Source: a virus. Taken from it: a stretch of 64,000 nucleotides of DNA. The notes under the pieces are model-generated. The model searched no databases. It worked only from the letters and a program-made list of their open reading frames with translations, and had not been told where the DNA came from. The number at the start of each line of letters is the position of its first letter. Within the stretch, counting starts at the first letter, position 1. Below, in pieces: positions 2 to 37,280 of this stretch. The stretch covers positions 54,471-118,470 of the IMG/VR virus record IMGVR_UViG_3300032313_000500; one strand, written 5' to 3'. Both the position numbers and the translations under genes were made by a program.

Positions 2-430
2 AAAGAAGCAGAGTCAATAGCAGTAAGAAGTATTGCTTTTGCTCAAGGAAAATCAAAACGTGATGCCATAAGGTATTTAAGGAATAGGAAAGACAAAGAT
101 TATTTGGCTTTAATGGATTTAGCCATTGGAAAAATGATAGACGACGCAGTGGACTCACTGTTTCAAGACAGGGGTGGAGTTTACGATGATGTCGCTAAAA
201 AATATAGTGTTTATTCTCGTCATGGGATGCATGAGTTAATTGCTGAAATAGGAAAACTCATAACCTCAACCCCAGAAGAGAGGGGTTTGTCTGCAAGCGA
301 CACAAACTACGCCATTGATAGTGAAACCGTAGATTTCCTCATGGACATGTTTCCTTCAATATCAAGAGGATTATGGGTAAGTATAATAAAGACGTCTTAT
401 CCAGGGATTCAAATAAAGGTATTGAGGTAA
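2..430 (+). CDS. Hypothetical protein, 5'-truncated
   Basis: Frame of the 104..430 ORF is open back to nt 2 (KEAESIAVRS...), so the gene starts outside the window. Confidence 0.6.
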   Translation, partial: KEAESIAVRSIAFAQGKSKRDAIRYLRNRKDKDYLALMDLAIGKMIDDAVDSLFQDRGGVYDDVAKKYSVYSRHGMHELIAEIGKLITSTPEERGLSASDTNYAIDSETVDFLMDMFPSISRGLWVSIIKTSYPGIQIKVLR

Positions 431-10561: not shown

Positions 10562-11164
10562 TCACTGTTCCAGCCAGTTCTTTTTAATCCACTTAGCGAT
10601 GAATTCAGCACGCAACTGAGAACCCGTAGAGCCGTAATGGACTTTATCTGGATTCAACAAATGCTGCCTAGTTTGGATAAATCTATCCCAGCCAATGACG
10701 TGCATATTGATATTCCTACCAGCCTTCTTTTCAAGCATAGAGTTCCACAGTCTGGCTGACTTGTTGTTGTGGTTGCCCCAGCCCTTCCATATGGAAACCC
10801 AAGCAACCTTCCTACCTTTTAGTTCGTTCATGACTGCAGACACCCTGTTGCCAGTGTTTTCGTACTTGTATGAAGGCGAATCGTTCGTACCGAGCGCAAT
10901 TACCCAACAAGCGTCTTTATCAACGCGCTTTTTGTAGTACCTAACCGCTTCCAAACCCGTATGAGGGTCGTTTGGCATCTTCGTAAATACGGACCTGCTG
11001 CCAGCGGCTGAAATTATGGCGTCAGGGAAACCGATTTTTTTATATTCAGCGACCTGAAACTGTTTTGAGTGCACCGTTAAAGAATCTCCGATGTGGACCA
11101 CGTTTGAACATGTCCCAGGAACATTCATGAGTAGGGAGAACAAAAGACTATACATATCTATCAA
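10562..11164 (-). CDS. SGNH/GDSL-family hydrolase
   Basis: HIGDSLT (block I), IALGTND (block III), PDKVHY (block V). Confidence 0.85.
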   Translation of the reverse strand: MIDMYSLLFSLLMNVPGTCSNVVHIGDSLTVHSKQFQVAEYKKIGFPDAIISAAGSRSVFTKMPNDPHTGLEAVRYYKKRVDKDACWVIALGTNDSPSYKYENTGNRVSAVMNELKGRKVAWVSIWKGWGNHNNKSARLWNSMLEKKAGRNINMHVIGWDRFIQTRQHLLNPDKVHYGSTGSQLRAEFIAKWIKKNWLEQ

Positions 11165-11642
11165 GTACCTTTTCTAATAGGATTGGCTTGTAACCAGTCT
11201 GCTCAACGCTTACGCACTGATACCAGGGGTCTGGAAGGGATTCGGCGTGCAAATGTCCGTGAATATTGCCTCTATAGCGATATTTCTGGTGGTCAGAGAC
11301 TGGAATGTGAGTTAAAACAAACTTGTTGTACGAAAAAGTGCCCATGATGTCATAAAAGTAGGGGGTATAAACGCTTAAAGGAAGTCTATCGTGATTGCCC
11401 TTTATTAATAATTTCCTACCATGTAAGAACCGCATCGTTTTGACACCTTGCTTGTCTATGGCAACATCACCAAGGTGGATAACCTCATCCTTGGGGCCTA
11501 CCGTCTCGTTCCACAACTGAATCATCTCTTCGTCCATCTCTGAGGCACTATCCCACGGACGTAACTTGTCGCCGTGCTTGGCTGAGAACTCGCAAATGCG
11601 TTGATGTCCCCAATGAGTGTCGGCTGTAACGAATATTGACAT
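11148..11642 (-). CDS. Calcineurin-like metallophosphoesterase
   Basis: ADTHWGH, HLGDV, KGNHD, LTHIP, IHGHLH. Confidence 0.92.
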   Translation of the reverse strand: MSIFVTADTHWGHQRICEFSAKHGDKLRPWDSASEMDEEMIQLWNETVGPKDEVIHLGDVAIDKQGVKTMRFLHGRKLLIKGNHDRLPLSVYTPYFYDIMGTFSYNKFVLTHIPVSDHQKYRYRGNIHGHLHAESLPDPWYQCVSVEQTGYKPILLEKVLDRYV

Positions 11643-11811
11643 ATCTCCATCGTACCGGGAAGAAGTAGGAACTCAAACGTTTTGTATGGATTTATCCAAT
11701 AGTGGATTAGGCTTCAAAATTTATCGTGTGCCCCCCCACGCGCGCCCGACCCGTTCAGAAAAAAGCCCCGAGAATCGCCTTACGGGGTCCGAAAACGACC
11801 ACTTATAGTAG

Positions 11812-11865
11812 TTATCCACACCCTGTGAATACCACCCTCTGTGGTTGTCCACACCCTGTGGATAA
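11812..11865. promoter_or_regulatory. DnaA-box cluster (origin-like)
   Basis: TTATCCACA 11812-20, TTGTCCACA 11845-53, TGTGGATAA 11857-65, plus degenerate TGTGAATAC 11824-32. Confidence 0.7.
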
Positions 11866-11874
11866 AGGTCAAAG

Positions 11875-11933
11875 CGAACACATGTACGACGAACACCTGT
11901 ACGCACGAACACATGTACGACGAACACATGTAC
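11875..11933. repeat. Four tandem 15-16 bp repeats CGAACACATGTACGA (SOS-box-like or iterons)
   Basis: Copies at 11875, 11890 (CGAACACCTGTACGC), 11906 and 11921. Confidence 0.85.
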
Positions 11934-12119
11934 CCATCACATAAACACTTGACAAAACATTACGAAAGTGCTAGTCAATACACATCACATGACGTTATAC
12001 CTGATTGTAGATAATGCCTCATGACCCACACAAAAGTGCTCCTCACAAGCACACTTTTACACATCACATAAGTCGCATCAAACTATTAGTTACACACACT
12101 TCACACACCACACAGTGAG

Positions 12120-15100
12120 GTGTTCTACAATGAGTCAATGCCTTTCTCTTATGACATAGAACCAAATGACTCACCACGTCTAAGGCGTCACATGTCAAGA
12201 GTAAATAGTGATGACAGACTAGAAGTCAAAGCACTAGGTCCGAACCTAGGGCAACTCGCACGAAGCGCACAGGTCTTTGACCCTAACGCATACGACGGTG
12301 ACGGTGATGGTGTAGTACAAGACGGCACACCCTTTGAGAGACCAGCAGTGTTGTCTAACATTGCCTCAGTAGCACGAGGACTCGCAAGCACCACGGGTGG
12401 CTACGGGTCATACACACCAAGAGGTTCGTGGACAGTAGGTCTCACCAATGAACAGGTAGCAGAGAGGGCAGTGCCTAGCACGCCTGCTGCTTTCGTTGAG
12501 ATGATGGTCGCTCAACAAGGCTCCACGGGTAACCTATCTGACAGTGTGCAGAAGGCACTAGACATAGCAATCTTTGACGAGGAGAGGGTCGCTGAACTAC
12601 GTGACACATTGCGTAACGCACTAGACGAAAGACCTGAACTACGAGCAGCCTTTGATAGGTTCGGTTGCCCACCCATAGGTGTACACCCCAACAAAGACGA
12701 GGATGGAGAAGGTATTGGATATGGAGGTATCGCTTATGGTAAGCAAGCAATCTTCATAACAGAAAAGACACTAGACAAAGGCGCTATGTCAGAATGGTTT
12801 GGTAGAAGGAAGTTCTCTGCGAAAGTATTCTCCTTCACTACATTCGCACCAAGAGTAAAAGGTGTTGACCGTGCCTTCACAGGGGAATCAGCAGAAGACA
12901 TCATCACCCATGAGTGGGGTCACTACCTCAATCACCTAGTAGCAGACATAGCACCAGACCCAGAACTGCGTGAGTTAGCAGGAGCCCTAGGGCAAGGCTC
13001 TTGGTACATGTCAACTTACTTCACTCGCATTCCTCCAAAAGTGAAGAGGATGTTTGAGTACTTTGATGGAGCCATGAAGAGTGGTGAGAAGGTAGACCAA
13101 CCAGTTGGTGTTCCATTCGTCAAGAGCGTGTATGGCACCTCAATGCCATGTGAGTTCTTCGCAGAATCAGTAGCAGCATACTTCTCCCCTCGTCGTAAGA
13201 GTAGAGAACTACTCAACGATGAAGGAATAGAAATAGTTGAACAAATGCTTGGCATTAGAGGAGCATCTCGCAGTGGATTCGCATCACGAACAGGTTCTCT
13301 AAAAAGCAGTACGGGTAGTACCCTGCGTGGTAAGACACCACAAGAGATAGCAGACATTGTAGTACCCAAGACAAAAGCAGAAGCAATCGCATTGTCTGAC
13401 GCACACAACGCTTTACTTACAGACCCAGATGGTGTTCGTTACACGGCATCAGAACCAGACAAACTAAAAATAATTATCCCCAAGGGTATTGACGCTATGG
13501 ACTTCTCACCCGAAGCAGTGTCTCGTATGAAAGAGATGGTCGTAGAAGCACTCTCAAATAACCCTGAGTTCCATGAAGCAGTACAAAGATTTGGTATGCC
13601 ACCTGTTCTGATAACAAAGCCAGGCGAAAGACTGGATGGGGCGTACGCCATTGCTGGTGTAGAGGGTTTCCCTGCTATCACTATTGACTCAACAATGAGA
13701 GAACAAGCATTGGCCAAAGGGTGGTGGCCTAATGGTATTTACGAAGATGAACCATTCATCAAAGGGACAGAGGGCTTCTCTACAAGTCCCACGAGTGAAG
13801 GATTCTTTATTCATGAATGGGCTCACTACCTCAATCGCCTAGCATTAGACATACACCCAGACGAAGAGATGAGAGAATTAGCACGCTTTTGGTGGAACGA
13901 CACTTGGATACTAAATGCAGCCATTCCTAGGCTTACGAGATTTCTAAGGGGATTAGGTAAACCAAAAACACGAATAGATGCTAGATACAGGGGCGCTGAT
14001 AAATTCTATTGGGCAACACGTGACAACAAATCCGTTGACTTTACGGGTTACCCACACGTAAAGACACAGTATGGACAGTCACAACCAGCAGAAGCGTTTG
14101 CCGAAGCAGTAGCAGCAGTACTCTCCAAAGATGTTGACGACAAAGAGTTGGTCAGTCCTGAAATGCGTAGAGATGTTCTTGACATGCTTGGTTTCTCACC
14201 TTCGGTCAAAGAGATAGACAGAGCAGGCAGTTCAGAGGGTAGAGGTAGTGGGTTTGCCTCAAAGACTGTCACCAGAGGACCTGATGGCACGAGAATTATT
14301 AACACATCTGACCCTTTCACACCGTTGAGTGGTTCTGATTGGCTAAAAGACGCTACGGATGACGAGGTAGCAGATGCTGTAACGCCTACGAGTATTGATG
14401 ACGCAATAGCGCTTACGATAATGAATACGTCATACGGGGACGACCCAGCAAATTACCCAGCAGAAGAAGCAAAAGTACGTCAAATAATGACGGACCACAT
14501 CTTCAAGTTTTACGGTAGGGACAGCAATGGGCAAATAGCAACAGACGCAAACGGGAAGCCCATTAGTTTCTCTGTTCCTTACGATTTTTCTCCACAAGGC
14601 AGACAAACAGTCAAAGACATGGTCAAAAGAATGATGGCAGAGTCGCCAGAATTCTCATGGATGATTAGACGCTTCGGGTGTCCACCAATGATGGTTATAG
14701 ACGAAGCAAAACTCACCCAACTAAACAATCAGGTTGAACAAATGCGTCTTGCTGGTCAAGACATCTCTCTTCCGTTCCATCTCGCAAACGGAGCAGTCGG
14801 TGGTTTTTCGGTAGGTACTTACGGGATAACACTCAGGCCTGACCCCACAACAGACAACTTACCAATGGGATTTTACAGAGGGTTGGCAGCAAAAAGAAAG
14901 ACTGGAAGGATAATCACAAATCCTGACGGAAGCAGGGAAGAAGAAAAAGAACACTGGATGAACAACTTCGGACTATCCCTAGCCGATAAGGCTATTCACG
15001 AATGGGCTCACTGGTTCTACGCAACCGTAAAAGGAAACAAAGGACTACTAGGTAAGTCACGCAGGGGAGATAGAAAATCTCGTCTTTCCTACTTGTTCCC

Positions 15101-18100
15101 TGGTATTCCTATGGCAGATGCTGAGAAAATGACAAAAGAGTTCCTTGACGCTTTTGACGCAGACGGTTTCATACCTTTCAACGGCATGAGTGCGCAATAT
15201 CTTGAAAGAATAATGACGACAGCACGAAGAAGCATCAATAGAAACCTAGGCAACAAACCACTAACGGAACAGTTACTTGCCGACGCAAGATTCGTGGACC
15301 TAATCAACGACTATGTGAATAATGTAATCAACGCCCCTAATGATTGGTCTCCCTCGCAGGCACAGGAATTCGCCGACCAGATAGCGATTGAGTTTCCTTA
15401 TCTAGTAGATGACATGCCACCACTTATTGCTGGAACATACGCAACAGCAACTCGTCAAGAACTATGGGCAGAAGCAATACTTTTGTTCTCCTCACCAGAC
15501 AGAAAGTTAAAGGCTAAGTACCTAACGCCAGAGATAGAAGCATTTATTGCTTACGCGTTAGGGTTGAAGCCAGACAGAGACCCAAGTACTCCTTATCAAA
15601 AACCGTGGGCACATCGTAGTGGTTTGTCATCCTCTTCACGGGTGAGGAGATTACACGCAGCGCAAGACAGCATAGATGAAAGAGTCTCCGACAAGGACGA
15701 CGGGTTCGCTAGTAGAAATGCCGGCGATGCTAAATCAACAACAGTAAAGATGTCTCGTGAAACATCTAGTACGTCACGATTTACGGTTGGTGACTACGAG
15801 TTTGACATAACAGATGAAGATTTGTCTACTTATGATTGGGATACTGCTTACGACCAGTGGACAACTTGGTCGGGCAACTGGCGCATGCGTCATTTGTCGT
15901 CAGCAATGATGGGTATAGAACAGCAACCCACAAAGGGTGGCGAAGAGTCGCTATCAACAGTCCACGAAGTAATGCGCTCGGGTGAACTGCTAGACGCACC
16001 TAACCATGTAAAAGACTCCGTTCGTGAATCACTGATAAACACACATAAGACGATGGAAAAAATCTCTATGGGTGACACAGTTAGCGATAGACCGTTGTAC
16101 CGAGGACTTGGTTCAGTTCCTGATGATTCAGAGATACTGATGGCAGAACAGGGTGAGACAATAACGTTCCCACTTAGCGCGTTCACCCCAGACAGAGGAT
16201 TAGCCACAACATTCGCCGACATGAATGCCGAGAGCGACAAAAAAGTAATCCTCCAACTTCAAAATGGTGCCCATGTAGCGTCTAGTGACTACACAACACA
16301 GATAAGAGACCTAGAAAGCGACTGGGTAGAAGTACCAATTGAGTCCGTTACCCAAGGAGAGTTCACTGTCGTATCCAAGCGTGAGCAAGACGGGTACACG
16401 GTTGTAGAACTATCGCACTCTAAGACGTTTGACCCACTATCAGGAAAGATGGTTGACACGAACGTTCGTGAGGGGTTCGCTTCTTCCAGCATGAGACCAG
16501 AGCGACGGGTATCCGATAGCGCTATCCGTACGCTTACAGACAACATGGACTTCCTACGAGATAACCCACCAATGGGTAAGGGTGGCAAAGACCTAGACGA
16601 CCGTTGGGCAGAGCAGACGATAGGAAAACTTCGCAGTGGCGAGATAACTCAGGAGGATGCGTTTGACCTAATGAATGCTGTCATTGAGATACTCAGCGAC
16701 GGGTTCAGTAAAGACCCAAGCCAAAAAGAGAATCCAGAAGGAAAACTTCTCGCCTATCAAAAACTCGTAAAGCGCTTACGCAAACTTGCTGTTGGTGGCA
16801 TGAGCAAAGACGACATGGACGACCTCCGTAGAGAGCAGGGAATCATCCCTACTGTCACCAACAAGCCAAAGCCGACTCCTTATGCTGGTGGTCGTTTCGG
16901 CTTCTCTTCCACAACAAGAAGAGAAGAACTATCTACTCGTGCGCAAGAACGTATTGACGCCATTGACGCACAGGTAGAAGAACTTGAATCATTCAACCGA
17001 CGTCTAATGAGAGCAATCAGTGAACTTCAAGCCACGGGCAACTGGGAAGGCGAGAAGCACGACGTTTTCCTCAAAGAGGGCAACAGTCCCAAGACCTACA
17101 CTAAGGAGCAATTGGAAAGCAACGGATGGACACAGAGAGTAAGGGAAGAATCAGCAAGGGCTCATCTTGATAGAGAAATGTATGTAAATAGTCTAAAAAG
17201 AGAGAGAAACGACCTTGAAGATAGTCAAAAGCGTCTTGCTGGTGAATATCCAGAAACAACAATGCTTGTTGACGAGTTACTACTTGACGAAGACAATGTA
17301 GAGAGCATCTTGGCGAGGTCGTTAGAAGTTGATTCAATGAGCCAACAACAAAGAGCAGAAAGATTCACCGACCCCAATGACCCTAACGCAGTGTATGTGG
17401 TTCATTTTGGAGCGACCAAACTAGAAGGTGGTCAGTTGGACCCTTCTCGTTCACGAGGACAGGTTGGACAAGGTATCGCTGGGAATACTCGCCAGATAAA
17501 TGACGAGACAGCCAGATATATGGTCGGATTGCGTGATGATGCGAAGCGGGACCTATCCATCCTTGAAGAGATGAAGCGCCAGATTGAGACTGATGGCGTG
17601 ATTGACTTTGACGCAATCGCACGAACCGACACTAGAGACTCCTTCCGGGCAGGGAGGGCAAGACTACTGCTCGGTCTAAATCGCCGTGACCCAGAACGCT
17701 CAACACATATACCAGAAGGCTGGCAGGTTTCCAATATTGACGGCGCTATCGGAGATAAAAACAACGTCATATCTAGACTTGACAAGGTTGCCGACCAGTT
17801 GATTGCAGACGACTATCAATACACGAGTACATACAGGGCGTCAGCATTGCAAGACCTACTCGGCTCGTATGGAGGAAGATACGCAGAGGGCGACTCTACG
17901 GAATGGGGCGACAACGCAAGGCGCTCAACAACTACTGGTATCCATATCTTTAAAGTAAGAATAGGTGATGACGCAGTTGAGCAGAACAGCGTTGGAGAAA
18001 CTCACCTAGTTGGCAAACACACTCCAATCGCTTCACTCGTTGTAGACAGTAGCGCTAACGACGACAATCCTGCTCGTGAAATCTGGAAGGGTTGGCTTGA

Positions 18101-21100
18101 TTCGGTAATTGAACAAGACATTGGTAAAAACAATGCACGTCGCTCAGGATTTGCTTCCAGGGCTTCCGTAAGAGAGTCATCACGGGTTATCGGAGAAGAC
18201 GGAGATGCTAGCAAGCCTTCAATACTCGGAAGAGCAAAAGATAAACTAAAACTAAACGATAGACAAGTCGGTCATATTAATTCAATGACCAACAAGATGC
18301 ACTCAATCTTTACTAGTGGAAAAATTTACGATGAACCAATCCATCCAGCAATTGATGACAGAAGAAAAGAACTGCTTGATTCAATAAGGGTTGTAAGAGC
18401 AGAGGGTGGAATGACGATGATTGTCGCCGAACCAAACCCAGTATTTAATGCTTATTTGCCAGTAAAGAGAGACTGGGCGTCTATTGAACTACCGTCCCGC
18501 GAAGCAGTTGCCGAGGCAATAGAGAAATTGAAATCAAACAAAGGAGGCAGGCGCTCGGACACTTATGGCTCGGGTGCATTTACGGACCATCTTGAATCAT
18601 TGCTTCAAGAGATAGGGAAGTTGGGTGAAGGTCCAGGAGACCTTCCGTACGAGGGAGGAGAAGGAAACTACATATCCTATGTTCAGCAATACTACGACTC
18701 AATAAGAAACCCTGTTGGTGCTTCACGTCTGCTCCAAGGTAGCGATGGAATGCATGATGCGTTCGGACACTTTGGTACAGGCAGAGGCTACGACAGACAT
18801 GGGGAGTGGGCTAACTATCTAGCAATGAAAGACATGATAGACGCATCGCCACTTACTGACGAAGAGAAAGAAGATGCTCATAGATTCTGGTTTAGAGAGT
18901 ATGGGTGGCTTCAGTTCGCAAAACGTGGAGACCTAGAAGAAGTAGACGATAATTTACGTTTCATGGCAGACGACTATGACGGACCGTTCAGTGACATTTT
19001 GGAAATCATTGACTCTGGTCACAACGGTCTTGACGACGTACCAGAAGAAGAAACACCTTCAGGCAAGACCATCTCAGATACTTCAGCGTCAGAACTGAGA
19101 CAAGCAGCAAGAAACGACGCTGAGGCACAACTAGAAATGAGTCGTAGTGGGTTCTCTAGTACAACGAGAGACACGGGTAGAAACAGAGAAGTTTCTGCTG
19201 AATACACACAGGGCATATTCGGCAAACTAAAAGCCCTTAAAGAGCGACTTGGTTACGGAAAAGACTTTGAAGAAAAAGTAAGCAAAGAAAAACTTGACAC
19301 CAGAATAGAAGAAACAGCCGCTTATGCCAAGCGCATCATTGACTGGGATGCTGGAAAAGACGTCGTACTGCCTCAAAGTGCTATTGATTACATAAAAGAC
19401 GTAGTTGCAAGAAACGCTTTCTTTACTTCAGACAAACGTGCTGATGGTGGTGCGAGTTTGATACCCATACAGGCGGCACTTAGTAAGTCCTCTCCTGACG
19501 TATGGCCAATAGGAACCCCGTTGCCCCCAAGTTTGGCATTAGAGATATCAAGACAAATACATATCGCTAGAGGCGATACTGAAATGGTCGCAAAAATTGA
19601 TGAGTTTAAAAATTACTTAAAAACAGTCACTCCAGAACAATTGAGCGAAGACATAAGAGCAGCGTCTTTAGTATATGGCGAGTCAATTGACAAGCGTGTT
19701 TTGGTTAGAACGAGAAGCGTAAACCCTTTTATTAAAGGAAGTCGCACCATACTTACTCAGCACGACAGGGAAGAACGAGAAGCGGCTGGCGTTGAGTCTA
19801 TGAACATGATGGGTGACGGCATTACTACAAGCGCAAGAAGGAAAGTTGAAGCAAACCTTTTAGGTCTACCATTTGAAGAAGGGGTAGAAGACTCTCCAGA
19901 AGTAAGGGAACTAAGACCAACGTCTGGCTATGTAACCACTTCAAAAACAGCATTGGCACGAAAAGAAAAGTTTAAAGAAATTTACGGCGACGATGTTGAA
20001 CTAATGTATGACGGTCCTGCTGGAACAGCGCTAGAGCATTCTCAAAACAACACCGGGAAGTATGGTCCCTCGCAGTTTGTGCTGCGCCCAGCAGTTGCCG
20101 AGCGCACAAGGGTTTTTGATGCAGACACAGTAGATATGTCATTGAAAGACAACCCCCCTCTACAACTTAGTGCCCTTGAAGAAGACGGCATTTTTCTTGG
20201 TGGCACCACCAACCCCATCGGAATGCTTTACGACTACAAGACTGGTGACACTTATCCAACGCCTTCTGGAGCATTTGAGGGAAGTTCCGACACTCATTCA
20301 AGTCAAGGAACTGCAGCAAGTTACAAAGAAGCATTGGTTCTTGGAAGGTTCAAGCCCGAAGAAGTTGAAGCGATAATTGCCGCACCAGCAGACTTTAGAA
20401 AAGAAGACGGAGAATTATCCGAAAGACTTAATCCAAATAACGAAGCAAACTTCAGCCTATTGATTGATATGGCGCGTTCACGTGACGAACTAATGCAAGA
20501 ACACGGCATAGAGGTTGTTCCCAATATTAGAAGAGGTGTATTCAAAACCGATGACGTTGAGATGTTTAACCCAGCAATGACTGACGTGTGGTTTGATACG
20601 AACTTTGCAGATAAGGGCTTATCAAAAGAAGAAATAGTTCCAGACAAATCAACTACACCATACGAAGCGTACCTAAGAGTATTAATAGCAACAGGAGAAC
20701 TTCCTGAAATGTTTGAATACCGTGGTCCTAGTGGTAAGAGCGAAGAAGAGAAAGATGCTTGGAAGAGGGATGCGCTCAAGAAAGAACTCGCTAGAGTAGT
20801 AAGCCTCAAGAAAGACAAAGAAGTCAGCGGCACTCGTAGTCCCGGCTTCTCTTCTCGTTCGTCAAGAGCATCTGCAAAGAAAATAACCAAGAATTTCAAG
20901 GTAAACGGCAAGCCTCGCAAGGCTCCAGTTGACAGAGATGAACTCATACGACGTGCTGTCCCTCAGAACGCAGCCGACATGATGAGAATCATTGAAGAGT
21001 CTCCATACATGGAGGGCAAGAAGAGCAAACAAGAAATCTATGAACTCATCAACATGATGGACATAGATTGGGTAGCCCAACAGAAGATGCGTCTCAAACT

Positions 21101-21758
21101 TGAGAGAGTATTGATGGATTCACCTGCATTTGAAGAACTTCTCAATGAATACGACATACCCCTGATGATTATTACAAAATCAGGAGTTGCTAAATATGCC
21201 GGAGGCACAGGCACTTTGTATCCCAACTCGGACAGGTGGAGAAACATTGAGGGCGAGTACATGACGGAATACGGTTTTATCGCATTTCCCGCACGTGTAG
21301 TTGACCAAGAAACAGTGAACAATGCCGTAAGTGATGGACCGCTACCGACAGATGACATTATCCGTCACGAGTTGTCTCACACTATCCACGCTATGGCGAT
21401 GGCTCAGAGTAAAAAAGCCCGCAAGAAGTACGAGGCCGACATTGCTGAATTTATTGAGAGAATGGAAGACGCTATTGACTACGCGGAACGGTCAGGCGCT
21501 ACGGAATTTGACATGAGGTCAGTCACTATGGACCCAGTAGACGATGCTCTCGCAGGAGAAATAAGTAGATACGCGCAGTCCAAGAGGGCCGAATACATCG
21601 CTGAACTGCTCACCCACATGCTTCCGGGCAAAAGAACCAAATATGTCTCACTTAAAGACGAGCACTTTAAGATGCTCTCAGAGTTTCTTGATATTCCAAT
21701 ACCTAGACTACGTGAACTGTACAATAAATCAATGGACAATAGGGCAGGGTGGCTGTAA
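12120..21758 (+). CDS. 3212-aa multi-domain effector (polyvalent) protein: 4 zincin metallopeptidases, ART-like domains, GF[AS]S linkers
   Basis: HEXXH at aa 264, 565, 960 and 3083, each followed by Y...E..AE; LYRG/LSAFT/IES ART triad; ten G[FL][AS]S linkers; possible leaderless start at ATG 12138 (TACAAT 6 nt upstream). Confidence 0.85.
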   Translation: MFYNESMPFSYDIEPNDSPRLRRHMSRVNSDDRLEVKALGPNLGQLARSAQVFDPNAYDGDGDGVVQDGTPFERPAVLSNIASVARGLASTTGGYGSYTPRGSWTVGLTNEQVAERAVPSTPAAFVEMMVAQQGSTGNLSDSVQKALDIAIFDEERVAELRDTLRNALDERPELRAAFDRFGCPPIGVHPNKDEDGEGIGYGGIAYGKQAIFITEKTLDKGAMSEWFGRRKFSAKVFSFTTFAPRVKGVDRAFTGESAEDIITHEWGHYLNHLVADIAPDPELRELAGALGQGSWYMSTYFTRIPPKVKRMFEYFDGAMKSGEKVDQPVGVPFVKSVYGTSMPCEFFAESVAAYFSPRRKSRELLNDEGIEIVEQMLGIRGASRSGFASRTGSLKSSTGSTLRGKTPQEIADIVVPKTKAEAIALSDAHNALLTDPDGVRYTASEPDKLKIIIPKGIDAMDFSPEAVSRMKEMVVEALSNNPEFHEAVQRFGMPPVLITKPGERLDGAYAIAGVEGFPAITIDSTMREQALAKGWWPNGIYEDEPFIKGTEGFSTSPTSEGFFIHEWAHYLNRLALDIHPDEEMRELARFWWNDTWILNAAIPRLTRFLRGLGKPKTRIDARYRGADKFYWATRDNKSVDFTGYPHVKTQYGQSQPAEAFAEAVAAVLSKDVDDKELVSPEMRRDVLDMLGFSPSVKEIDRAGSSEGRGSGFASKTVTRGPDGTRIINTSDPFTPLSGSDWLKDATDDEVADAVTPTSIDDAIALTIMNTSYGDDPANYPAEEAKVRQIMTDHIFKFYGRDSNGQIATDANGKPISFSVPYDFSPQGRQTVKDMVKRMMAESPEFSWMIRRFGCPPMMVIDEAKLTQLNNQVEQMRLAGQDISLPFHLANGAVGGFSVGTYGITLRPDPTTDNLPMGFYRGLAAKRKTGRIITNPDGSREEEKEHWMNNFGLSLADKAIHEWAHWFYATVKGNKGLLGKSRRGDRKSRLSYLFPGIPMADAEKMTKEFLDAFDADGFIPFNGMSAQYLERIMTTARRSINRNLGNKPLTEQLLADARFVDLINDYVNNVINAPNDWSPSQAQEFADQIAIEFPYLVDDMPPLIAGTYATATRQELWAEAILLFSSPDRKLKAKYLTPEIEAFIAYALGLKPDRDPSTPYQKPWAHRSGLSSSSRVRRLHAAQDSIDERVSDKDDGFASRNAGDAKSTTVKMSRETSSTSRFTVGDYEFDITDEDLSTYDWDTAYDQWTTWSGNWRMRHLSSAMMGIEQQPTKGGEESLSTVHEVMRSGELLDAPNHVKDSVRESLINTHKTMEKISMGDTVSDRPLYRGLGSVPDDSEILMAEQGETITFPLSAFTPDRGLATTFADMNAESDKKVILQLQNGAHVASSDYTTQIRDLESDWVEVPIESVTQGEFTVVSKREQDGYTVVELSHSKTFDPLSGKMVDTNVREGFASSSMRPERRVSDSAIRTLTDNMDFLRDNPPMGKGGKDLDDRWAEQTIGKLRSGEITQEDAFDLMNAVIEILSDGFSKDPSQKENPEGKLLAYQKLVKRLRKLAVGGMSKDDMDDLRREQGIIPTVTNKPKPTPYAGGRFGFSSTTRREELSTRAQERIDAIDAQVEELESFNRRLMRAISELQATGNWEGEKHDVFLKEGNSPKTYTKEQLESNGWTQRVREESARAHLDREMYVNSLKRERNDLEDSQKRLAGEYPETTMLVDELLLDEDNVESILARSLEVDSMSQQQRAERFTDPNDPNAVYVVHFGATKLEGGQLDPSRSRGQVGQGIAGNTRQINDETARYMVGLRDDAKRDLSILEEMKRQIETDGVIDFDAIARTDTRDSFRAGRARLLLGLNRRDPERSTHIPEGWQVSNIDGAIGDKNNVISRLDKVADQLIADDYQYTSTYRASALQDLLGSYGGRYAEGDSTEWGDNARRSTTTGIHIFKVRIGDDAVEQNSVGETHLVGKHTPIASLVVDSSANDDNPAREIWKGWLDSVIEQDIGKNNARRSGFASRASVRESSRVIGEDGDASKPSILGRAKDKLKLNDRQVGHINSMTNKMHSIFTSGKIYDEPIHPAIDDRRKELLDSIRVVRAEGGMTMIVAEPNPVFNAYLPVKRDWASIELPSREAVAEAIEKLKSNKGGRRSDTYGSGAFTDHLESLLQEIGKLGEGPGDLPYEGGEGNYISYVQQYYDSIRNPVGASRLLQGSDGMHDAFGHFGTGRGYDRHGEWANYLAMKDMIDASPLTDEEKEDAHRFWFREYGWLQFAKRGDLEEVDDNLRFMADDYDGPFSDILEIIDSGHNGLDDVPEEETPSGKTISDTSASELRQAARNDAEAQLEMSRSGFSSTTRDTGRNREVSAEYTQGIFGKLKALKERLGYGKDFEEKVSKEKLDTRIEETAAYAKRIIDWDAGKDVVLPQSAIDYIKDVVARNAFFTSDKRADGGASLIPIQAALSKSSPDVWPIGTPLPPSLALEISRQIHIARGDTEMVAKIDEFKNYLKTVTPEQLSEDIRAASLVYGESIDKRVLVRTRSVNPFIKGSRTILTQHDREEREAAGVESMNMMGDGITTSARRKVEANLLGLPFEEGVEDSPEVRELRPTSGYVTTSKTALARKEKFKEIYGDDVELMYDGPAGTALEHSQNNTGKYGPSQFVLRPAVAERTRVFDADTVDMSLKDNPPLQLSALEEDGIFLGGTTNPIGMLYDYKTGDTYPTPSGAFEGSSDTHSSQGTAASYKEALVLGRFKPEEVEAIIAAPADFRKEDGELSERLNPNNEANFSLLIDMARSRDELMQEHGIEVVPNIRRGVFKTDDVEMFNPAMTDVWFDTNFADKGLSKEEIVPDKSTTPYEAYLRVLIATGELPEMFEYRGPSGKSEEEKDAWKRDALKKELARVVSLKKDKEVSGTRSPGFSSRSSRASAKKITKNFKVNGKPRKAPVDRDELIRRAVPQNAADMMRIIEESPYMEGKKSKQEIYELINMMDIDWVAQQKMRLKLERVLMDSPAFEELLNEYDIPLMIITKSGVAKYAGGTGTLYPNSDRWRNIEGEYMTEYGFIAFPARVVDQETVNNAVSDGPLPTDDIIRHELSHTIHAMAMAQSKKARKKYEADIAEFIERMEDAIDYAERSGATEFDMRSVTMDPVDDALAGEISRYAQSKRAEYIAELLTHMLPGKRTKYVSLKDEHFKMLSEFLDIPIPRLRELYNKSMDNRAGWL

Positions 21759-22381
21759 AGATGATACCTAAATCAGAAGACGACATGAATGCCGTAGACA
21801 TTTATGACTTACAAACAATGCTTGCTTCCGTTGATGACTCTGAAACCCAACAGAGAATCATTTCACTGATAGACAAACTTTCGTCATCAGCCCCTTCTCG
21901 TGAAACAGTAAGAGGCAAGTCGGTTCAGTGGGTAGACCTAGCAACAAAGTCGTTCGTACTGGATGCCCCGTCATTTGACATCAAGTCCCTGAACTACACA
22001 ATGCCCGAAGTGCGTGAAAGAATCAAGAACCGTATTATGGCTGGCGACAAGGGTGGCAAAGCAGGTCAATGGTCTGCTCGCAAGGCGCAACTACTCGCTA
22101 TGGAGTATCGTAAAGCAGGTGGTGGCTACAAGGGTGGTCTACGCAAGACCCAGCGTTCGCTCAAGAAGTGGACACGAGAGAAATGGACAACATCAGATGG
22201 CAAACCAGCGATTCGTAAAAACGGCACTCGTCGCTACCTTCCTTCTTCTGCTTGGTCTCGTCTTACGCCAGCACAGAGGACAGCGACGAATCGTAAGAAA
22301 ATCATCGGAAGTCGGCAAGGCAATCAGTTTGTTGCAAATACACGAAGTGCAGAGAATGCTTCGCGCAGAGCAAGAGACTGA
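21749..22381 (+). CDS. Basic conserved phage protein (DUF5872-like), putative head component
   Basis: RERIKNRIMAGDKGGKAGQWSARKAQLLAMEYRKAGGGY and QRSLKKWTREKWTT motifs; family name from memory. Confidence 0.65.
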   Translation: MAVKMIPKSEDDMNAVDIYDLQTMLASVDDSETQQRIISLIDKLSSSAPSRETVRGKSVQWVDLATKSFVLDAPSFDIKSLNYTMPEVRERIKNRIMAGDKGGKAGQWSARKAQLLAMEYRKAGGGYKGGLRKTQRSLKKWTREKWTTSDGKPAIRKNGTRRYLPSSAWSRLTPAQRTATNRKKIIGSRQGNQFVANTRSAENASRRARD

Positions 22382-30860: not shown

Positions 30861-32774
30861 TCAAACACCTTTTCTGAATAATCCCATCAGCAGTTCACCC
30901 AACGAGTCGGCTTCAGCGGCGGGACCCCCGTCCACGGCTTGATTGACCACGCCACGCTTGCGCTCAATGAGTGAATAAATCTCCTCGTCAATGGTTCCAT
31001 CACACAACAAATAAGTTGCGGTGACGGAAGACTTCTGTCCCAACCTATGACAGCGACTGTAAGTTTGGTCAATGTCAGCGGGTGTCCACGGAAGTTCTAC
31101 GAATAAAACGTCTTGTGCGACTTGCAGGTTATGCCCCGTCTTCGCTGCTTGGATTGAGAGAACGATGACTGGTGCTTCTTCACATGGCAATGTCATAAAC
31201 TTGTGCTTCTGCGCTTCTATCTCGTTGATGTCCATTCCCCCTTGGATGCGCAAGTTACCGAACGCAAGTGCGAGTTCATCCACTACATCCCTGTGGTGGG
31301 CAGCGATGACGACTTTGCGTCCTTCGGCTACGCGGGACTCAACCCATTCTTTGATAACGGGCATTTTTGCTTTTGCTGACAAGCGACGCAGAACAGAAAG
31401 GCGAACTAAGTGCTGGTTTGACTCTGCTTTGATTTTGGCAACAACAGCAGCAGAGTTTGGATTCAGTCCAAGTTCCAGTGCTATCTCTTTTGCTCGTTGG
31501 ACAAGGTACTCAATGATGTCAGTTTCGGCTTTTCTGTATTCTTTCATTCCGGCCGCAGTCCCGTCAACAAGCACGGGGTCGTGAACAACAGGGGGTAGGT
31601 CGGATAAAACTTGTTCCTTTGTGCGCCGAATGTAACAAGTTGAGCGAAGTAAGTCATTTAGTTCATCAAGATTGCTATGTCCATCAAGATGCCATTGGCC
31701 CCACTTGTCTTTGAAGGCCCCGCAATAGCGTCTGTAGAAACCCCACTCTCCTCCGAACTTATCTAACTTTCCAAGAATGTTTAGTTGGCTTGCGTACTCG
31801 GCTGGTCGGTTGGTAACTGGAGTTCCCGTCAAACACAGAACAATTCCTTCTTTCGGGGCTGACCGTGCGATTTTCACGGCACTCTTAGTTCGCTGTGCTG
31901 TTGGCGTCTTGCAATAGTGACTTTCGTCAAAAACATACGACCTGTGGTTTGAGAGTTGTTTTTCCCACTTATTAAGGTTAGAATAACTAATAACGACTAC
32001 ATCATAATCAGAAGGAAACTCTTTACGGTCTTTTACGACTGCGACCTTCTTGTGTGGGAGCCACCTGTTGTATTCTGCTTTCCAGTTCAACACGAGTGTG
32101 GCGGGACAGACAACAACGGCTGGATAAGAGTCGTACACATACTCCAATGTCGCAATGGCTTGCAATGTTTTTCCCAAGCCCATCTCGTCTGCAATGAAAG
32201 TACGCCGTGCATTACTTGCGTAAGCAACCCCTGCTCGTTGATACGGCAGTAACGTTCCCGTCAGTCCCGTCACTTCAATCTCAGCATCAGTGAGTCGTGA
32301 TGCTTCTCTAAGTTCCGAGAGCGATGTGTCTACTGCTTTGAGCATTTCACGAACTTCGTCAGGAACCTGTTGTTTGAAAGTGTCACCCCACTTCACGACA
32401 TCGGCGATGCTGGTAACCGGGGCTCGCCATGCCATCGTCTTCTTGTCCCAAGTAACTCCTGCTACCTGTTTGACTGACTGAATCATCACTCTGTCGTAAC
32501 CAAAGGACATTGTCAGCCATTTGCCGTCGTAGTTGATGCCCCGTGCTTCGTTCTTATGAGAGGGCAATGTAAACAAGAGGACTTCGGGGTCAATGTCAAA
32601 GTCGTTGTCCTGTGCGAACTGCCTTGCTTCTTCCAGACTCGCCATCGGGGCTCGCCAGACACGGGAAACCTTGTCCCACTTCGCCCCTTTTATCTGTTTG
32701 ACTTTTGCTACCTCGCCTATGTCGTAAGGAAAGTCAAGAACTAGGTGGTCATCGTCAAGGCTGAGTTTTTTCAC
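30861..32774 (-). CDS. SNF2/SMARCAL1-like (HARP-type) helicase
   Basis: LLPYQ, ADEMGLGKT, DESH, LTGTP.TNRP, YIRRTK, QAAKTGHNLQ, QTYSRCHRLGQ; two N-terminal KWD...WRAP repeats. Confidence 0.92.
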   Translation of the reverse strand: MKKLSLDDDHLVLDFPYDIGEVAKVKQIKGAKWDKVSRVWRAPMASLEEARQFAQDNDFDIDPEVLLFTLPSHKNEARGINYDGKWLTMSFGYDRVMIQSVKQVAGVTWDKKTMAWRAPVTSIADVVKWGDTFKQQVPDEVREMLKAVDTSLSELREASRLTDAEIEVTGLTGTLLPYQRAGVAYASNARRTFIADEMGLGKTLQAIATLEYVYDSYPAVVVCPATLVLNWKAEYNRWLPHKKVAVVKDRKEFPSDYDVVVISYSNLNKWEKQLSNHRSYVFDESHYCKTPTAQRTKSAVKIARSAPKEGIVLCLTGTPVTNRPAEYASQLNILGKLDKFGGEWGFYRRYCGAFKDKWGQWHLDGHSNLDELNDLLRSTCYIRRTKEQVLSDLPPVVHDPVLVDGTAAGMKEYRKAETDIIEYLVQRAKEIALELGLNPNSAAVVAKIKAESNQHLVRLSVLRRLSAKAKMPVIKEWVESRVAEGRKVVIAAHHRDVVDELALAFGNLRIQGGMDINEIEAQKHKFMTLPCEEAPVIVLSIQAAKTGHNLQVAQDVLFVELPWTPADIDQTYSRCHRLGQKSSVTATYLLCDGTIDEEIYSLIERKRGVVNQAVDGGPAAEADSLGELLMGLFRKGV

Positions 32775-32824
32775 ACCCGCATCATAGCCCAGCGTTTGCG
32801 TTTGCGTGTTTGTGGGCAGACAGC

Positions 32825-32859
32825 AAAGAGCCCGCCAGCGGAGGGCACTGGCGGGCTCT
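32825..32859 (-). terminator. Hairpin terminator after the CxxC micro-ORF
   Basis: AGAGCCCGCCAG / CTGGCGGGCTCT inverted repeat. Confidence 0.7.
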
Positions 32860-32873
32860 GTGTGGACTGTGCG

Positions 32874-32942
32874 TCAGTCGCAGTGGTCGTGGTCTGGGTA
32901 GTCGTACCCGATTGGTTCGCCACAAGCGGAACATCTGTTCAT
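32874..32942 (-). CDS. 22-aa CxxC micro-protein MNRCSACGEPIGYDYPDHDHCD
   Basis: Own promoter (32961), GAGGAGGAGG RBS and terminator; paralog at 36801. Confidence 0.55.
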   Translation of the reverse strand: MNRCSACGEPIGYDYPDHDHCD

Positions 32943-33066
32943 TTTTTCCTCCTCCTCATTCATACCTTCACTCTATCGGTAATAAAAGGTAAAGACAACC
33001 CGAAACAAAAGAAAGTTATTTACAGCCTTTTCTCCCGCGCCATGAGCCCAGCGTTTGCGCTTGACC

Positions 33067-33327
33067 TCACTTGCCTAACTGAATGGTGTCGCCCGTGTGG
33101 ATAGTAGTCGTGTCTAGAAGTTCGGCTATGTCCCAACTTGCTTGGAGCGTGTGACCCGAACAGTATCTCTCGGTAATTTCTGAAAGAGTGTCGCCTCGCT
33201 CTACCGTCACGCTCACAGCGGGGCAGGAGTAGTCGTACTTGCTGTCAATGATGTTGCTGATTAGCAGGGCTACTGGCACCAATACGATAATGCCAACGGC
33301 TATGCGCCTTCTGATGTATTTACTCAT
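33067..33327 (-). CDS. Membrane-anchored LysM-domain protein
   Basis: N-terminal TM helix; VTVERGDTLSEITERY...IHTGDTIQL. Confidence 0.85.
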   Translation of the reverse strand: MSKYIRRRIAVGIIVLVPVALLISNIIDSKYDYSCPAVSVTVERGDTLSEITERYCSGHTLQASWDIAELLDTTTIHTGDTIQLGK

Positions 33328-33524
33328 AACTTCACTCTATCGGTAATAGAGGGTAAACACAACCTCAAACAAAATAAAGTTATACACAGAGTTATACACA
33401 GCCCACGCTGCGCTAAAACAAAAAACATCATTCCTAATCTACTAACGGTGGCGGAAAGCAAATGGGAATAACTGTCTAGACGCAAGAAGACAACGACGGG
33501 GCTGCGGCGGGAACGTGCAAAAAA

Positions 33525-33713
33525 CAAAAAAAAGAACCCCAACCCGAAGGCTGAGGCTCTAATTCCTTGTGACTCACCATTAGAACTCCCAAGGAAGAGT
33601 TTATGTTTGGTCGTGAGACAATCCAGCAGGTAGGGCTTCTCTGCATAATTGTGGTATTCCCAATCGCCGAGTTGCCTCAGTCTTTGGTTTCCACCTCGGT
33701 GTCCTTTACCGAT
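33525..33713 (-). ncRNA. Candidate ~190-nt structured sRNA
   Basis: Repeated promoter whose start position reads ATC rather than ATG; GNRA hairpins; ends in a UUCG terminator at 33533-33560. Confidence 0.45.
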
Positions 33714-33785
33714 ACTTACACTCTATCGGTTGTAGGGTGTAGTTGCAACCCCAGACCAGAAAAAGTCTGGCGAGTCCCGAGAACG

Positions 33786-34037
33786 TTAGTCCTTGTTGTT
33801 TTCCTCGTACCACAGCGTCTTCACCACTTCAGCCACTTTGATGTGGATGTAATCGTGATGAAAAGGGTCAAACATGGTTCCCCGAATGCGTTCGGCAACG
33901 GCGGGGCGCTCCTTGTCCAGTTTGTTGAAGAACACCTGACCTAGTCGCTTTTTGTTTGCTGGGTGTTCCCAAGAGGCATACACCCTATCCACAAACTCTT
34001 CGTAAGTTCCGTCTTCGTAGTGGTCGTCGCACGTCAT
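33786..34037 (-). CDS. Hypothetical protein
   Basis: MTCDDHYEDG..RLGQVFFN.L; coupled to upstream small ORFs 34034..34141 and 34138..34305. Confidence 0.65.
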   Translation of the reverse strand: MTCDDHYEDGTYEEFVDRVYASWEHPANKKRLGQVFFNKLDKERPAVAERIRGTMFDPFHHDYIHIKVAEVVKTLWYEENNKD

Positions 34038-34137
34038 TCGTCGGCCCCGTCTTCGTTCTCTGTTTCGCACAGGTAAGCGTTAGCCCAAGACTCCATGAAG
34101 TCGTTGTACGCCTCCATGTCCTCCCATGTCCAGTCTT

Positions 34138-34305
34138 TCATTTCAGTTTCGCCTTGCACCAATCGCACTTACGTCCACCATCTATTGCAGGGTCGTCTCC
34201 GTAAATTAGTTCAATGTCGTAACACTGCGACTGACCGTGTGTCATGCAGTAAAGGTATCTACCGTTACGCCATGCTTTTGGTTTGCGTGTCTCTTGTACT
34301 TCCAT
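34138..34305 (-). CDS. 55-aa Cys-containing protein
   Basis: ATG at promoter variant 34303; YC..H...CDWC. Confidence 0.55.
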   Translation of the reverse strand: MEVQETRKPKAWRNGRYLYCMTHGQSQCYDIELIYGDDPAIDGGRKCDWCKAKLK

Positions 34306-34355
34306 AGTTACACTTTACAGGTAGTAACCACTAATACCAACATGGTGAGAAAGAT

Positions 34356-34646
34356 TTACAGTCCTCTGTTGCTGGCTCGCCACTGCGAGGGTGAGTGGTT
34401 CTCCTCAACGCCCCGCTTCTCGTCTTCGTCGTAGTAGAGGCGCAAGATGTGGATGCACGGGTCGCTTTCCTCAAACTCGGCATCTTCTTCTTCTGTGGTG
34501 GGCAATCCGTCATGCGTATAGCAAATCGGGGCTCCAACCCAGCCGTTTTCGTAACCAGTTTGTAGCCAAGACTCAAATGTCGGCTCTTCGTTTATTCTCT
34601 CCATCATTTCAGATGGGTCAAAGTTTTCTGCATCTTTTCCTACCAT
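34356..34646 (-). CDS. Acidic hypothetical protein
   Basis: WLQTGYENGWVGAPICYTHDGLP...DPCIHILRLY. Confidence 0.7.
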   Translation of the reverse strand: MVGKDAENFDPSEMMERINEEPTFESWLQTGYENGWVGAPICYTHDGLPTTEEEDAEFEESDPCIHILRLYYDEDEKRGVEENHSPSQWRASNRGL

Positions 34647-34804
34647 GCTTGCAGGTTACAGGTTAGAAGCAGGTACGACAACCCGTGCGTCGTTTTCTTT
34701 GGAGAAAGCGAGGGCGCTGTTTGTTCGGCTCTTCCTTCGGTTCTTCCGGCTCTTTCGGAGCCCCGTCGTCTTCTGGTGGTTTTGTCATGTACCCATAATA
34801 CGAC

Positions 34805-34837
34805 AAATGCCCCTCAACCATTTTCAGGTTGGGGGCA
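34805..34837 (-). terminator. Hairpin terminator
   Basis: TGCCCCTCAACC / GGTTGGGGGCA inverted repeat. Confidence 0.6.
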
Positions 34838-35036
34838 CATGACGCCTCATTGAATGGGGGTGTGTGAGGTCTGTGTAAAACTTAGTCTTCTCGGGGCTTC
34901 TCGTCGGGAACTTTTGGAGTAAAAAACGGAGAGTTCATCTTTGCTTTTTCCCAAGCCTTCATAAACTCTTGGCGCTCGGCTTCTATTTCCTCTTCGGTTT
35001 GGGCTGCTCGTCTCATGGAGTGAGCATAGCAAATCT

Positions 35037-35327
35037 TCACCCTGTCTTCCACCAAATTCGGTCGCCTTCGTACTCGTCTTCGTACTCGTAGTCCATCCCA
35101 AACTCTCTATCAAGGCACTCATGACACCTGTTCTTGACGCTTACTTCTCGTCGTGCGTACTCAGCCATCTCTTTTGCGGTCTTAGTTGCCCCGCATTCGT
35201 TGCAACGGGCTGGTCTGTCGGCTACAAACTTGCGATAGTACGCCTGCCTGCGCCTCATGTTCCTGAGGTTCTTGCGTTCGGTCGCTTGTCGTTGCGCTCT
35301 ACGCTGCGCGGGGCTGACTCTCTCCAC
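35037..35327 (-). CDS. Basic Zn-finger hypothetical protein
   Basis: GGAGAGG RBS; CNEC and CHEC. Confidence 0.6.
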   Translation of the reverse strand: MERVSPAQRRAQRQATERKNLRNMRRRQAYYRKFVADRPARCNECGATKTAKEMAEYARREVSVKNRCHECLDREFGMDYEYEDEYEGDRIWWKTG

Positions 35328-35422
35328 TATTCCTCTCCTGCTAGGTCTAGACAGTACTTGCACTCACCGTTGCTACTGCAATGGCAATGGTCGGGCATCT
35401 CTGGGGTTGTGTATTTACTCAT
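35327..35422 (-). CDS. 31-aa Cys-rich micro-protein
   Basis: MSKYTTPEMPDHCHCSSNGECKYCLDLAGEE; ATG at the repeated promoter. Confidence 0.55.
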   Translation of the reverse strand: MSKYTTPEMPDHCHCSSNGECKYCLDLAGEE

Positions 35423-35605
35423 ACCTTCACTCTATCGGTAGTAAAGGGTAGTTCCAACCTGCAACAAAAGAAAGTTATCCACAGGTTTATCCACATCTAC
35501 GAAAAAATCAAAAAAAATCTCAGACCCCCTGGGGTGTGTCATAGTTTCTAATCTTATAACGGTGGCGGAAAGCAAATCACGGGGCATCGCCAGATGCCGT
35601 GATGG

Positions 35606-35902
35606 CTAACCAACCCTCATGTTGTCAGGCTTATGCGTGTCGTTCGGGTTGCGAACCACAAATGTGTTTTCGGGCGCACGACCTTTGTACTCGTAGTCAA
35701 GTGCGTCGGCGTGGAACAGGGCGAGCCCCGTCTTGGCTAGATAATCGTCAAGGAAATCTTGCATTGCGCTCAAACGGGCAAACGAAATAGAGACCGTAAA
35801 GGGTTTCGTCGGCGAACCGACTTCCATCTCCCTCAGCAGTTCATCTGTCGTGATGCCAAGAGCCTCGGCAAGTTTCTTGATGTCTTTGGCTGTTTTCCTC
35901 AT
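35606..35902 (-). CDS. Small protein with XRE-like helix pair
   Basis: IKKLAEALGITTDELL; ATG at the repeated promoter. Confidence 0.6.
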   Translation of the reverse strand: MRKTAKDIKKLAEALGITTDELLREMEVGSPTKPFTVSISFARLSAMQDFLDDYLAKTGLALFHADALDYEYKGRAPENTFVVRNPNDTHKPDNMRVG

Positions 35903-35939
35903 ACTTTCACTCTAGCGATAGTAAGAGGTAAAGACAACC

Positions 35940-36152: not shown

Positions 36153-36259
36153 ACCTTCAATCTATGGATAGTAAAGGGTAGAAACAACCTGAACCCAAAC
36201 TTTTTTCAGAATGTTTCCCGTGAAACAATTAGGCATGCCTAACAAGCATTACGCAACTG

Positions 36260-37269: not shown

Positions 37270-37280
37270 GTGGAGACTGT

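Follow-up and report, generated by a model that had tools for sequence, protein, structure and literature searches.

We analysed a window of 64,000 nucleotides (nt), the right-hand 64 kb of the 118,470-bp virus record IMGVR_UViG_3300032313_000500 (record completeness, 79%), and concentrated on a gene at 12120-21758 (+ strand) that encodes a putative polyvalent polyprotein of 3212 amino acids (aa). This protein (P0001, from the genome of the window, G000) is punctuated by a four-residue linker mark, G-[FL]-[AS]-S. The mark delimits the modules of the protein, and in relatives the modules have been reshuffled there. The mark quite probably is a cleavage site, and the best explanation of the whole, which we put forward tentatively, is that of a tagged effector polyprotein in which the mark is cut by zincins of the cargo itself after packaging. 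The polyprotein would consist of one tag, a conserved core of three zincin modules resembling anthrax lethal factor (LF) and a variable train of cassettes, made up of an ADP-ribosyltransferase (ART), three or four modules that match no known family, and one further zincin, the fourth.

The motif G[FL][AS]S is present in exactly ten copies, at aa 87, 386, 711, 1168, 1195, 1452, 1594, 2010, 2344 and 2909. All ten linkers listed in the original prediction, which had been made from the DNA letters alone, were thus recovered at their aa and nt positions. In 2000 shuffles of the protein, the mean number of copies was 0.33 and the maximum was 4; for the strict form GF[AS]S, 8 copies were observed against 0.10 expected. 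The 12-nt codings of the ten marks are all different, as had been claimed for the codons, and selection on the mark therefore acts at the protein level. The flexible, R/S-rich context that had been ascribed to the linkers was also confirmed. Within 12 residues on either side of the marks, G, S, T and R account for 48% of the residues (28% in the whole protein) and hydrophobic residues for 16% (29% in the whole protein). Two AlphaFold2 models built from custom alignments covered aa 1140-2039 and aa 2013-3212, with mean predicted local distance difference test (pLDDT) scores of 73.9 and 57.0, respectively. Six of the seven modelled sites (1168, 1452, 1594, 2010, 2344 and 2909) lie in stretches with a pLDDT below 50 between confident domains, and site 1195 lies in a block with a pLDDT of about 60. 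Across relatives, the consensus extends to R-x-G-[FLM]-[AS]-S-[RSTK]-[ST].

The correspondence between marks and module borders was then assessed in homologues. The search returned 65 metagenome proteins of 2100-4250 aa, including the window's own (64 homologues), whose Pfam content varies and comprises DUF3626, NUDIX, RNase T, Zeta toxin and ART (ADPrib_exo_Tox) domains. The mark is conserved in homologues with 30-93% identity, and nearly every close or mid-distance relative carries 5-12 copies. Segments obtained by cutting the homologues at the mark cluster into families of constant length, and their alignments cover the segments from the first residue to the last, even where identity falls to 25-30%. 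Moreover, 60% of 222 internal BLAST end-points fall at most 15 aa from a mark, compared with 9.6% for random positions. The architecture of the window's protein is C86-A299-A325-A457-sp27-D257-E142-B416-F334-J565-I304. Modules F and J occur in swapped order in P0004, and other homologues insert a NUDIX module (H), a DUF3626 module (G) or further cassettes; the C-A-A-A part is constant. The motif thus behaves as the domain-boundary marker with varying domain order that the original prediction had envisaged. Its further suggestion, that the linker permits cassette shuffling, holds insofar as modules are reshuffled at the mark, and fails for shuffling at the DNA level: a DNA recombination site at the linker was ruled out, since almost all 12-nt codings differ. 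Unrelated effector domains in one chain, a zincin hub and shuffled architectures, by which polyvalent proteins are recognized, were all found here.

With respect to the individual modules, Pfam and PHROGs searches of the whole protein and of each segment gave nothing above threshold, a PDB sequence search of the giant protein gave no match, and nothing useful was obtained when the profiles of modules D, B and F were run against the PDB. Four modules are LF-like zincins (all coordinates on the + strand). Module A1 (12378-13274) opens with GLAS at aa 87 and carries HEWGH at aa 264 and EFFAE at aa 345; A2 (13275-14249) opens with GFAS at aa 386 and carries HEWAH at aa 565 and EAFAE at aa 658; A3 (14250-15620), a zincin with insertions, opens with GFAS at aa 711 and carries HEWAH at aa 960. 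The fourth zincin, module I (20844-21755), opens with GFSS at aa 2909 and has HELSH at aa 3083. The HExxH motif, a Tyr and two Glu residues are invariant across 17 zincin modules, and the zincin fold contains the HExxH helix together with a downstream Glu-bearing helix of the EFFAE type. The profile of the zincin modules matches the catalytic domain of LF (E value, 1.8e-4), and the best structural match of module I is LF itself (1yqy_A; Z score, 7.8; 163 aa aligned; root mean square deviation [rmsd], 4.0), followed by M34 Pro-Pro endopeptidases. Because the Pfam ATLF family is far under its threshold (11.4 bits versus a cut-off of 27.4; E value, 0.27; below the gathering score), we name these modules LF-like zincins on the basis of motif, profile and fold, and not members of the Pfam family.

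Between the zincin core and the remaining cassettes lies a conserved 27-aa mini-peptide (15621-15701), flanked by GLSS at aa 1168 and GFAS at aa 1195. Mini-peptides of 23-31 aa between two marks are likewise conserved in P0010 (aa 1762-1792) and P0033 (aa 1924-1953), with SSSRVRRLHAAQDS... and ...AEIVKNDIVRQ... as examples. In the window's protein, a mini-peptide of the ...AEIVKNDIVRQ... type is still connected to the end of module F, there being no mark between the two.

Module D (15702-16472) opens with GFAS at aa 1195, and structural comparison of its model supports a predicted ART fold of the R-S-E type. Foldseek matched it to 4y1w (E value, 5.9e-4), and VIA-align of aa ~1230-1448 gave a Z score of 10.0 with the Tre1-type toxin 6dre_B (147 aa; rmsd, 3.6), 9.4 with ExoS and 8.8 with C3. 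The motifs LYRG, PLSAFTPD and PIESVTQGEF are visible in its sequence and largely invariant; it has no Pfam match. Module E (16473-16898) opens with GFAS at aa 1452 and is small and helical. Module B (16899-18146) opens with GFSS at aa 1594 and combines a long helical hairpin with a predicted alpha/beta part, and module F (18147-19148) opens with GFAS at aa 2010 and holds the conserved pattern H-D..G-H.G.GRG.DRHGE; no family was matched for either of them. Module J (19149-20843) opens with GFSS at aa 2344, is poorly modelled and has a weak link to DUF3626, namely, an hhalign probability of 72% (P value, 3.5e-5) with the DUF3626-bearing module G and an Atlas lead of 0.90. A Pfam search of module J for DUF3626 (PF12294) gave no match; the genuine DUF3626 cassette of the relatives is module G, which the window's protein lacks. 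Fold searches for F, J and the C-terminal part of B gave no clear match, and their lists, which were taken up by matches to the ART, a helical hairpin and the zincin, are not evidence of new folds. Hence, the domain calls made from the DNA alone stood for the four zincins (motif, profile and fold), for the ART (fold) and for helical module E (model). The HDxxGH call stood as a conserved motif of module F to which no family corresponds, and the DUF3626-like call for module J is hinted at by hhalign and Atlas and is not matched in Pfam. The ART-like call for aa 1594-2009 found no support, hhalign showing no relation between module B and module D.

All of these modules lie behind a single address-like tag. 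An N-terminal leader (aa 1-36; 12120-12227) ends at the invariant K-A-L-G, where the tag begins (aa 37-76; 12228-12347; K-A-L-G...FDPNAYDGDGDGVVQDGTPFERPA). The tag is about 40 aa long (K-A-L-G ... FDPNAxDGDGDGxVQDGTPFERPA), with a calcium-loop-like core and a weak Excalibur match. Its consensus, K-[AG]-[LI]-G...FDPxAxDGDGDGxVQ[DE]GTPxxRP with a DxDxDG loop, is common to four giant proteins of G000; the three further copies lie upstream of the window, at 32437, 48829 and 52432 of the genome. Each of 49 distinct tagged open reading frames (ORFs) of related contigs has one tag only, and the marks follow it almost without exception (188 after the tag and 1 before), with 11% of the residues preceding the tag. 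That each chain has a single address, however many modules it contains, argues that any cutting would follow loading. Delivery of the protein from the virion together with the DNA is suggested by the fact that the tag is common to head-module proteins and to the fusion protein of the S78 prohead protease described below. Tagged sequences also occur in many IMG/VR contigs, including those of phages without the linker mark, and the tag is better conserved than the enzyme modules. Among shorter proteins with the tag, 8 matches were obtained, none of which is informatively named.

The mark is not a peculiarity of the 3212-aa protein. In G000, 26 marks are found in six proteins totalling 11,179 aa, and it occurs at about chance level elsewhere in the proteome. 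The window's giant protein holds 10 of them, the 2290-aa S78 fusion 8, the tape measure 3, a 1938-aa and a 1098-aa protein 2 each, and a 1083-aa Zeta-toxin-like protein 1. The S78 fusion is encoded upstream of the window (G000 31018-37890, + strand), and its first 170 aa are the protease (PF04586; 44 bits versus a cut-off of 21; E value, 3e-11), with invariant His (GHNW) and Ser (WSIGY) motifs. In the related genome G001, one module of this fusion (aa 1562-1788) is part of another tagged protein, and cassettes thus move between proteins. The tape measure gene also lies outside the window (G000 10811-15487, - strand). Its marks co-vary in five genomes (G000, G001, G005, G009 and G012). In these genomes, the tape measure has 2-4 marks, one near the N terminus and one to three in mid-chain; the mid-chain marks lie in a Gly-rich repeat, with GGGFASRTGAG present twice, and change in step with the rest of the genome.

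The form of the mark changes in concert between lineages. The hydrophobic position is occupied by 16 Phe, 8 Leu and 2 Met residues in the giant ORFs of G000, by Leu at 29 of 29 marks in G001 (with all six Leu codons in use), by Met at 14 of 15 marks in G004 and by Leu only in G005. A tagged 3365-aa zincin protein of G005 (80806-90900, + strand) has G-L-R-S at 5 sites, and the other giant proteins of that genome have G-L-A-S. Related protease fusions number 434 in IMG/VR. In sister lineages of the fusion, the mark becomes G-M-R-S-R (L152, L156 and L161), S-T-R-S (L160) or S-S-R-S (L151); no punctuation mark was found in lineages L163, L177 and L184. Marks of the form G-[MFL]-R-S number 24 in a 3661-aa S78 fusion and about 58 in genome G009, and a complete genome of 150.9 kb encodes a 4905-aa S78 fusion with 19 marks. 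Among isolates, the Gordonia phage DalanDe (L207, gene 27) has a gene annotated as a "capsid maturation protease" of 1633 aa, in which the S78 domain lies close to the C terminus and the mark is absent; large S78 fusions thus exist in isolates. Since the mark changes in concert and in a lineage-specific manner, a trans-acting reader with a lineage-specific preference is needed, and a protease is the simplest such reader.

On this basis, R-x-G-[FLM]-[AS]-S-[RST]-[ST] would be a dedicated endoproteolytic mark in disordered linkers at each module border, and the whole chain would be carried by its single tag and cut into about 10 pieces after loading. Since the mark is present in all giant head-module proteins and in the tape measure, a single protease of the phage would act on it in trans, with a preference that drifts from lineage to lineage. 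If the mark is indeed cut, a zincin is, by a small measure, the probable reader; for the S78 protease this is doubtful, and for another phage protease or a host protease it is improbable. The cargo zincins would act after packaging, most likely after ejection into the next host, following the logic of the MARTX toxins, and the S78 prohead protease would handle separate leader sites, [EDS]-x-K|[SAG]. Cutting after ejection would explain both the sites in the tape measure and the single tag. Consistent with such a role of the zincins, the C-A-A-A core is constant, the catalytic residues are kept, and the modules change quickly, G000 and G001 sharing about 40% identity in them. In 2017, Iyer, Burroughs, Anand, de Souza and Aravind predicted that polyvalent proteins are processed by their zincins (PMC5512222). 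The marks may even form a delivery-activated "tear-here" code, in which everything ejected by the virion, tape measure and head cargo alike, would travel as a few very long chains and be cut only in the next host, by co-ejected zincins whose specificity co-evolves with the linker, with F/L/M at one position and A/S/R at the following one; we regard this extended version as speculative.

Several points weigh against cutting by cargo zincins. Zincins are also found in relatives whose giant proteins lack the mark, and polyvalent proteins that enter the virion without being cut, e.g., N4 vRNAP, commonly contain zincin modules as well (PMC5512222). The near-complete relatives G001, G005, G009, G010 and G012 each contain both S78 and zincins. 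No zincin match was found in G004, but the completeness of this genome is only 54%, and its contig stops at the place expected for the gene. As module J is poorly modelled, the low confidence around site 2344 counts little towards linker disorder. Moreover, that the protein is packaged and cleaved, at which bond and by which protease, is inferred, whereas the motif statistics, the borders, the shuffling, the co-variation across the genome, the disorder of the linkers and the zincin and ART folds are shown.

Other points on the same side concern the S78 prohead protease. As a rather unlikely alternative, this enzyme would read the mark itself, and the tag-loaded polyproteins would be cut in the prohead during maturation, at G-phi-[A/S/R]|S or G-phi|x-S, as internal proteins are by T4 gp21 and phiKZ gp175. 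That prohead proteases process head cargo widely is established, and in T4 and phiKZ-like phages they are the enzymes known to do so. The marks are densest in S78 fusions, with the S78 domain heading the 2290-aa protein with 8 marks as well as the relatives of 3661 aa (24 marks) and 4905 aa (19 marks), and in tagged proteins the marks follow the tag. Ser at position 4 is the sole residue common to the GFAS, GMRS, STRS and SSRS variants; it recalls the K103|S104 cut of HK97 and would fit a Ser at P1', as in HK97 (K|S) and the herpesviruses (A|S). G-phi-x-S could be one constant S78 specificity. However, the protease hardly changes where the mark does. The S78 domain is 95% identical between G000, with Phe-rich marks, and G001, with Leu only, and it is 79-80% identical to that of the G-M-R-S and S-S-R-S lineages, with 96 of 165 columns invariant; by eye, no column consistently tracks A-type versus R-type marks. 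The leaders, in turn, carry a different, K-based class of site. Among tagged proteins from G000 and G001, the leaders preceding the tag have about 6-fold more [EDS]-x-K-[SAG] per length than the cargo, although the two do not differ in Lys content. Immediately after the S78 domain comes an invariant ISVK-S. This second class of site resembles the K103|S104 cut of HK97. The co-varying marks of the tape measure also argue against the S78 protease, since the tape measure is assembled outside the head and a capsid-confined protease could not reach them. Finally, the major capsid protein (787-2145, + strand) and the portal of G000 carry no marks.

It is also conceivable, albeit improbable, that cutting at the mark is due to a protease of the host or to an unrecognized phage protease encoded elsewhere in the genome. 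Conserved head-module ORFs of 474, 673 and 1938 aa are without annotation, and F-A|S resembles the site of the Prp protease of Firmicutes. Against this, Prp (PF04327) and C80 (PF11713) domains were not found in the genome, and usage of F, L or M is lineage specific among phages whose capsid proteins are 87-92% identical, which points to a phage-borne reader. Another alternative, unlikely in our estimation, dispenses with cleavage altogether: the mark would be a recognition or modification site in flexible hinges, for example, a docking site of a packaging or ejection factor or a target of the kinases or ARTs of these proteins, and the protein would act as one 350-kDa chain. Cleavage is, after all, an inference; N4 vRNAP and ArdC-type polyvalent proteins are delivered uncut (PMC5512222), and every protein that is expected to leave the virion, the tape measure among them, has the mark. 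Nevertheless, the position of the marks at borders, the shuffling, the mini-peptides of 23-31 aa between two marks and the number of marks, which reaches about 58 in one genome, are better explained by a cutting code than by docking, and kinase and ART cassettes vary whereas the mark is constant.

Among known systems, the protein is close in content to the polyvalent proteins (PMC5512222), which combine many effectors in one chain and for which delivery with the DNA has been proposed. In common with these, it has unrelated effectors in one phage chain, a hub of LF-like zincin metallopeptidases and ART, NUDIX and DUF3626 cassettes in the family. In contrast, that work contains no linker or cleavage motif (the word "linker" is absent), whereas here a mark stands at every border, co-varies genome-wide, reaches the protease fusion and the tape measure and is accompanied by a single tag. 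The T4 internal proteins and Alt, with their capsid targeting sequence and gp21 cut (L/I-x-E), and the phiKZ and SPN3US proteins (S/A/G-x-E) are similar in that an N-terminal address and a short consensus are found in many virion proteins, and that head cargo, including an ART, is trimmed by the morphogenetic protease. Unlike the polyprotein, from which about 10 products would result, such cargo is cut once or a few times, whereby propeptides are removed. The linker, G-[FLM]-[AS]-S, does not match either protease consensus, and the T4 and phiKZ proteases belong to family S77, whereas the head protease here is of family S78 and the reader may not be the head protease.

A parallel in logic is provided by the Vibrio MARTX toxins, in which processing takes place at Leu residues in unstructured segments between effectors, with the consensus small-Leu-small (PMC2900308). 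They, too, are giant modular chains with swapped cassettes (in their case between strains) and small-hydrophobic-small sites in disordered linkers; a conserved processing protease within the chain and cutting only after delivery would be further features in common. However, MARTX effectors are released by an internal C80 cysteine protease, while here a zincin is the candidate, a phage particle would serve as the vehicle and a bacterium would be the target; with no C80 domain (PF11713) in the genome, the likeness is one of logic and not of homology. A protease at the N terminus of a scaffold-like sequence is also known from HK97 gp4 (S78), which cuts gp5 at K103|S104, and from herpesvirus assemblin, which cuts at A|S with Ser at P1'; here, in contrast, the protease is joined to up to 4700 aa of cargo. 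Short dedicated sites are likewise used by the African swine fever virus polyproteins pp220 and pp62 (Gly-Gly-X cuts) and by the polyproteins of RNA viruses; these, however, yield structural or replication proteins of eukaryotic viruses, and not swappable anti-host enzymes of a tailed phage. Both pp220 and pp62 are named in PMC10308890.

Polyvalent proteins with likely processing (PMC5512222) and the processing of multiple substrates by head proteases are thus already known. Literature searches found no description of a conserved, co-evolving mark at every module border, nor of its spread over a protease fusion, other cargo and a tape measure, nor of the single address-like tag; in line with the original prediction, no described phage polyprotein with this site was found. 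If the marks are cut, tailed phages would load and deliver sets of anti-host enzymes under a single address label, and new weapons could be added as a cassette between two marks. The processing prediction of 2017 would become a directly testable rule, module borders could be defined for hundreds of unannotated giant phage proteins, and a natural protease/site pair with tunable specificity would be at hand. With the "tear-here" code, if true, phages would have their counterpart of the MARTX toxins, and tailed phages an example of gene expression by way of a true polyprotein.

The virus itself is an uncultured freshwater myovirus, with sheath, tube, chaperone and 1558-aa tape measure genes assigned by synteny and with a portal. 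Its capsid protein is ~47% identical to those of Brevibacterium and Gordonia phages, and GenBank phages gave no match to the giant protein or the tag (megablast and tblastn). Phage DNA is present in freshwater, lake and river metagenome runs of 14 studies, and the group is thus widespread in lakes and rivers; no RNA runs were listed among the sequencing runs holding the DNA. The reading frame of the giant gene is open throughout. Since homologues start at MPFSYD, the true start is probably the ATG at 12138 and not the GTG at 12120. Downstream, a 210-aa ORF (21749-22381, + strand) overlaps the last 10 nt of the giant gene, stop included, and matches phrog_17747 and phrog_14910 of PHROGs, both of unknown function. 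At the left end of the window, positions 2-430 (+ strand) encode the C-terminal end of the tagged 1083-aa Zeta-toxin-like P-loop kinase protein with its one mark, the start of which lies upstream of the window. Lastly, G000 and G001 share 92% identity in the capsid protein but about 40% in the cargo modules; judged by these sequence identities, the cargo evolves far faster than the particle.

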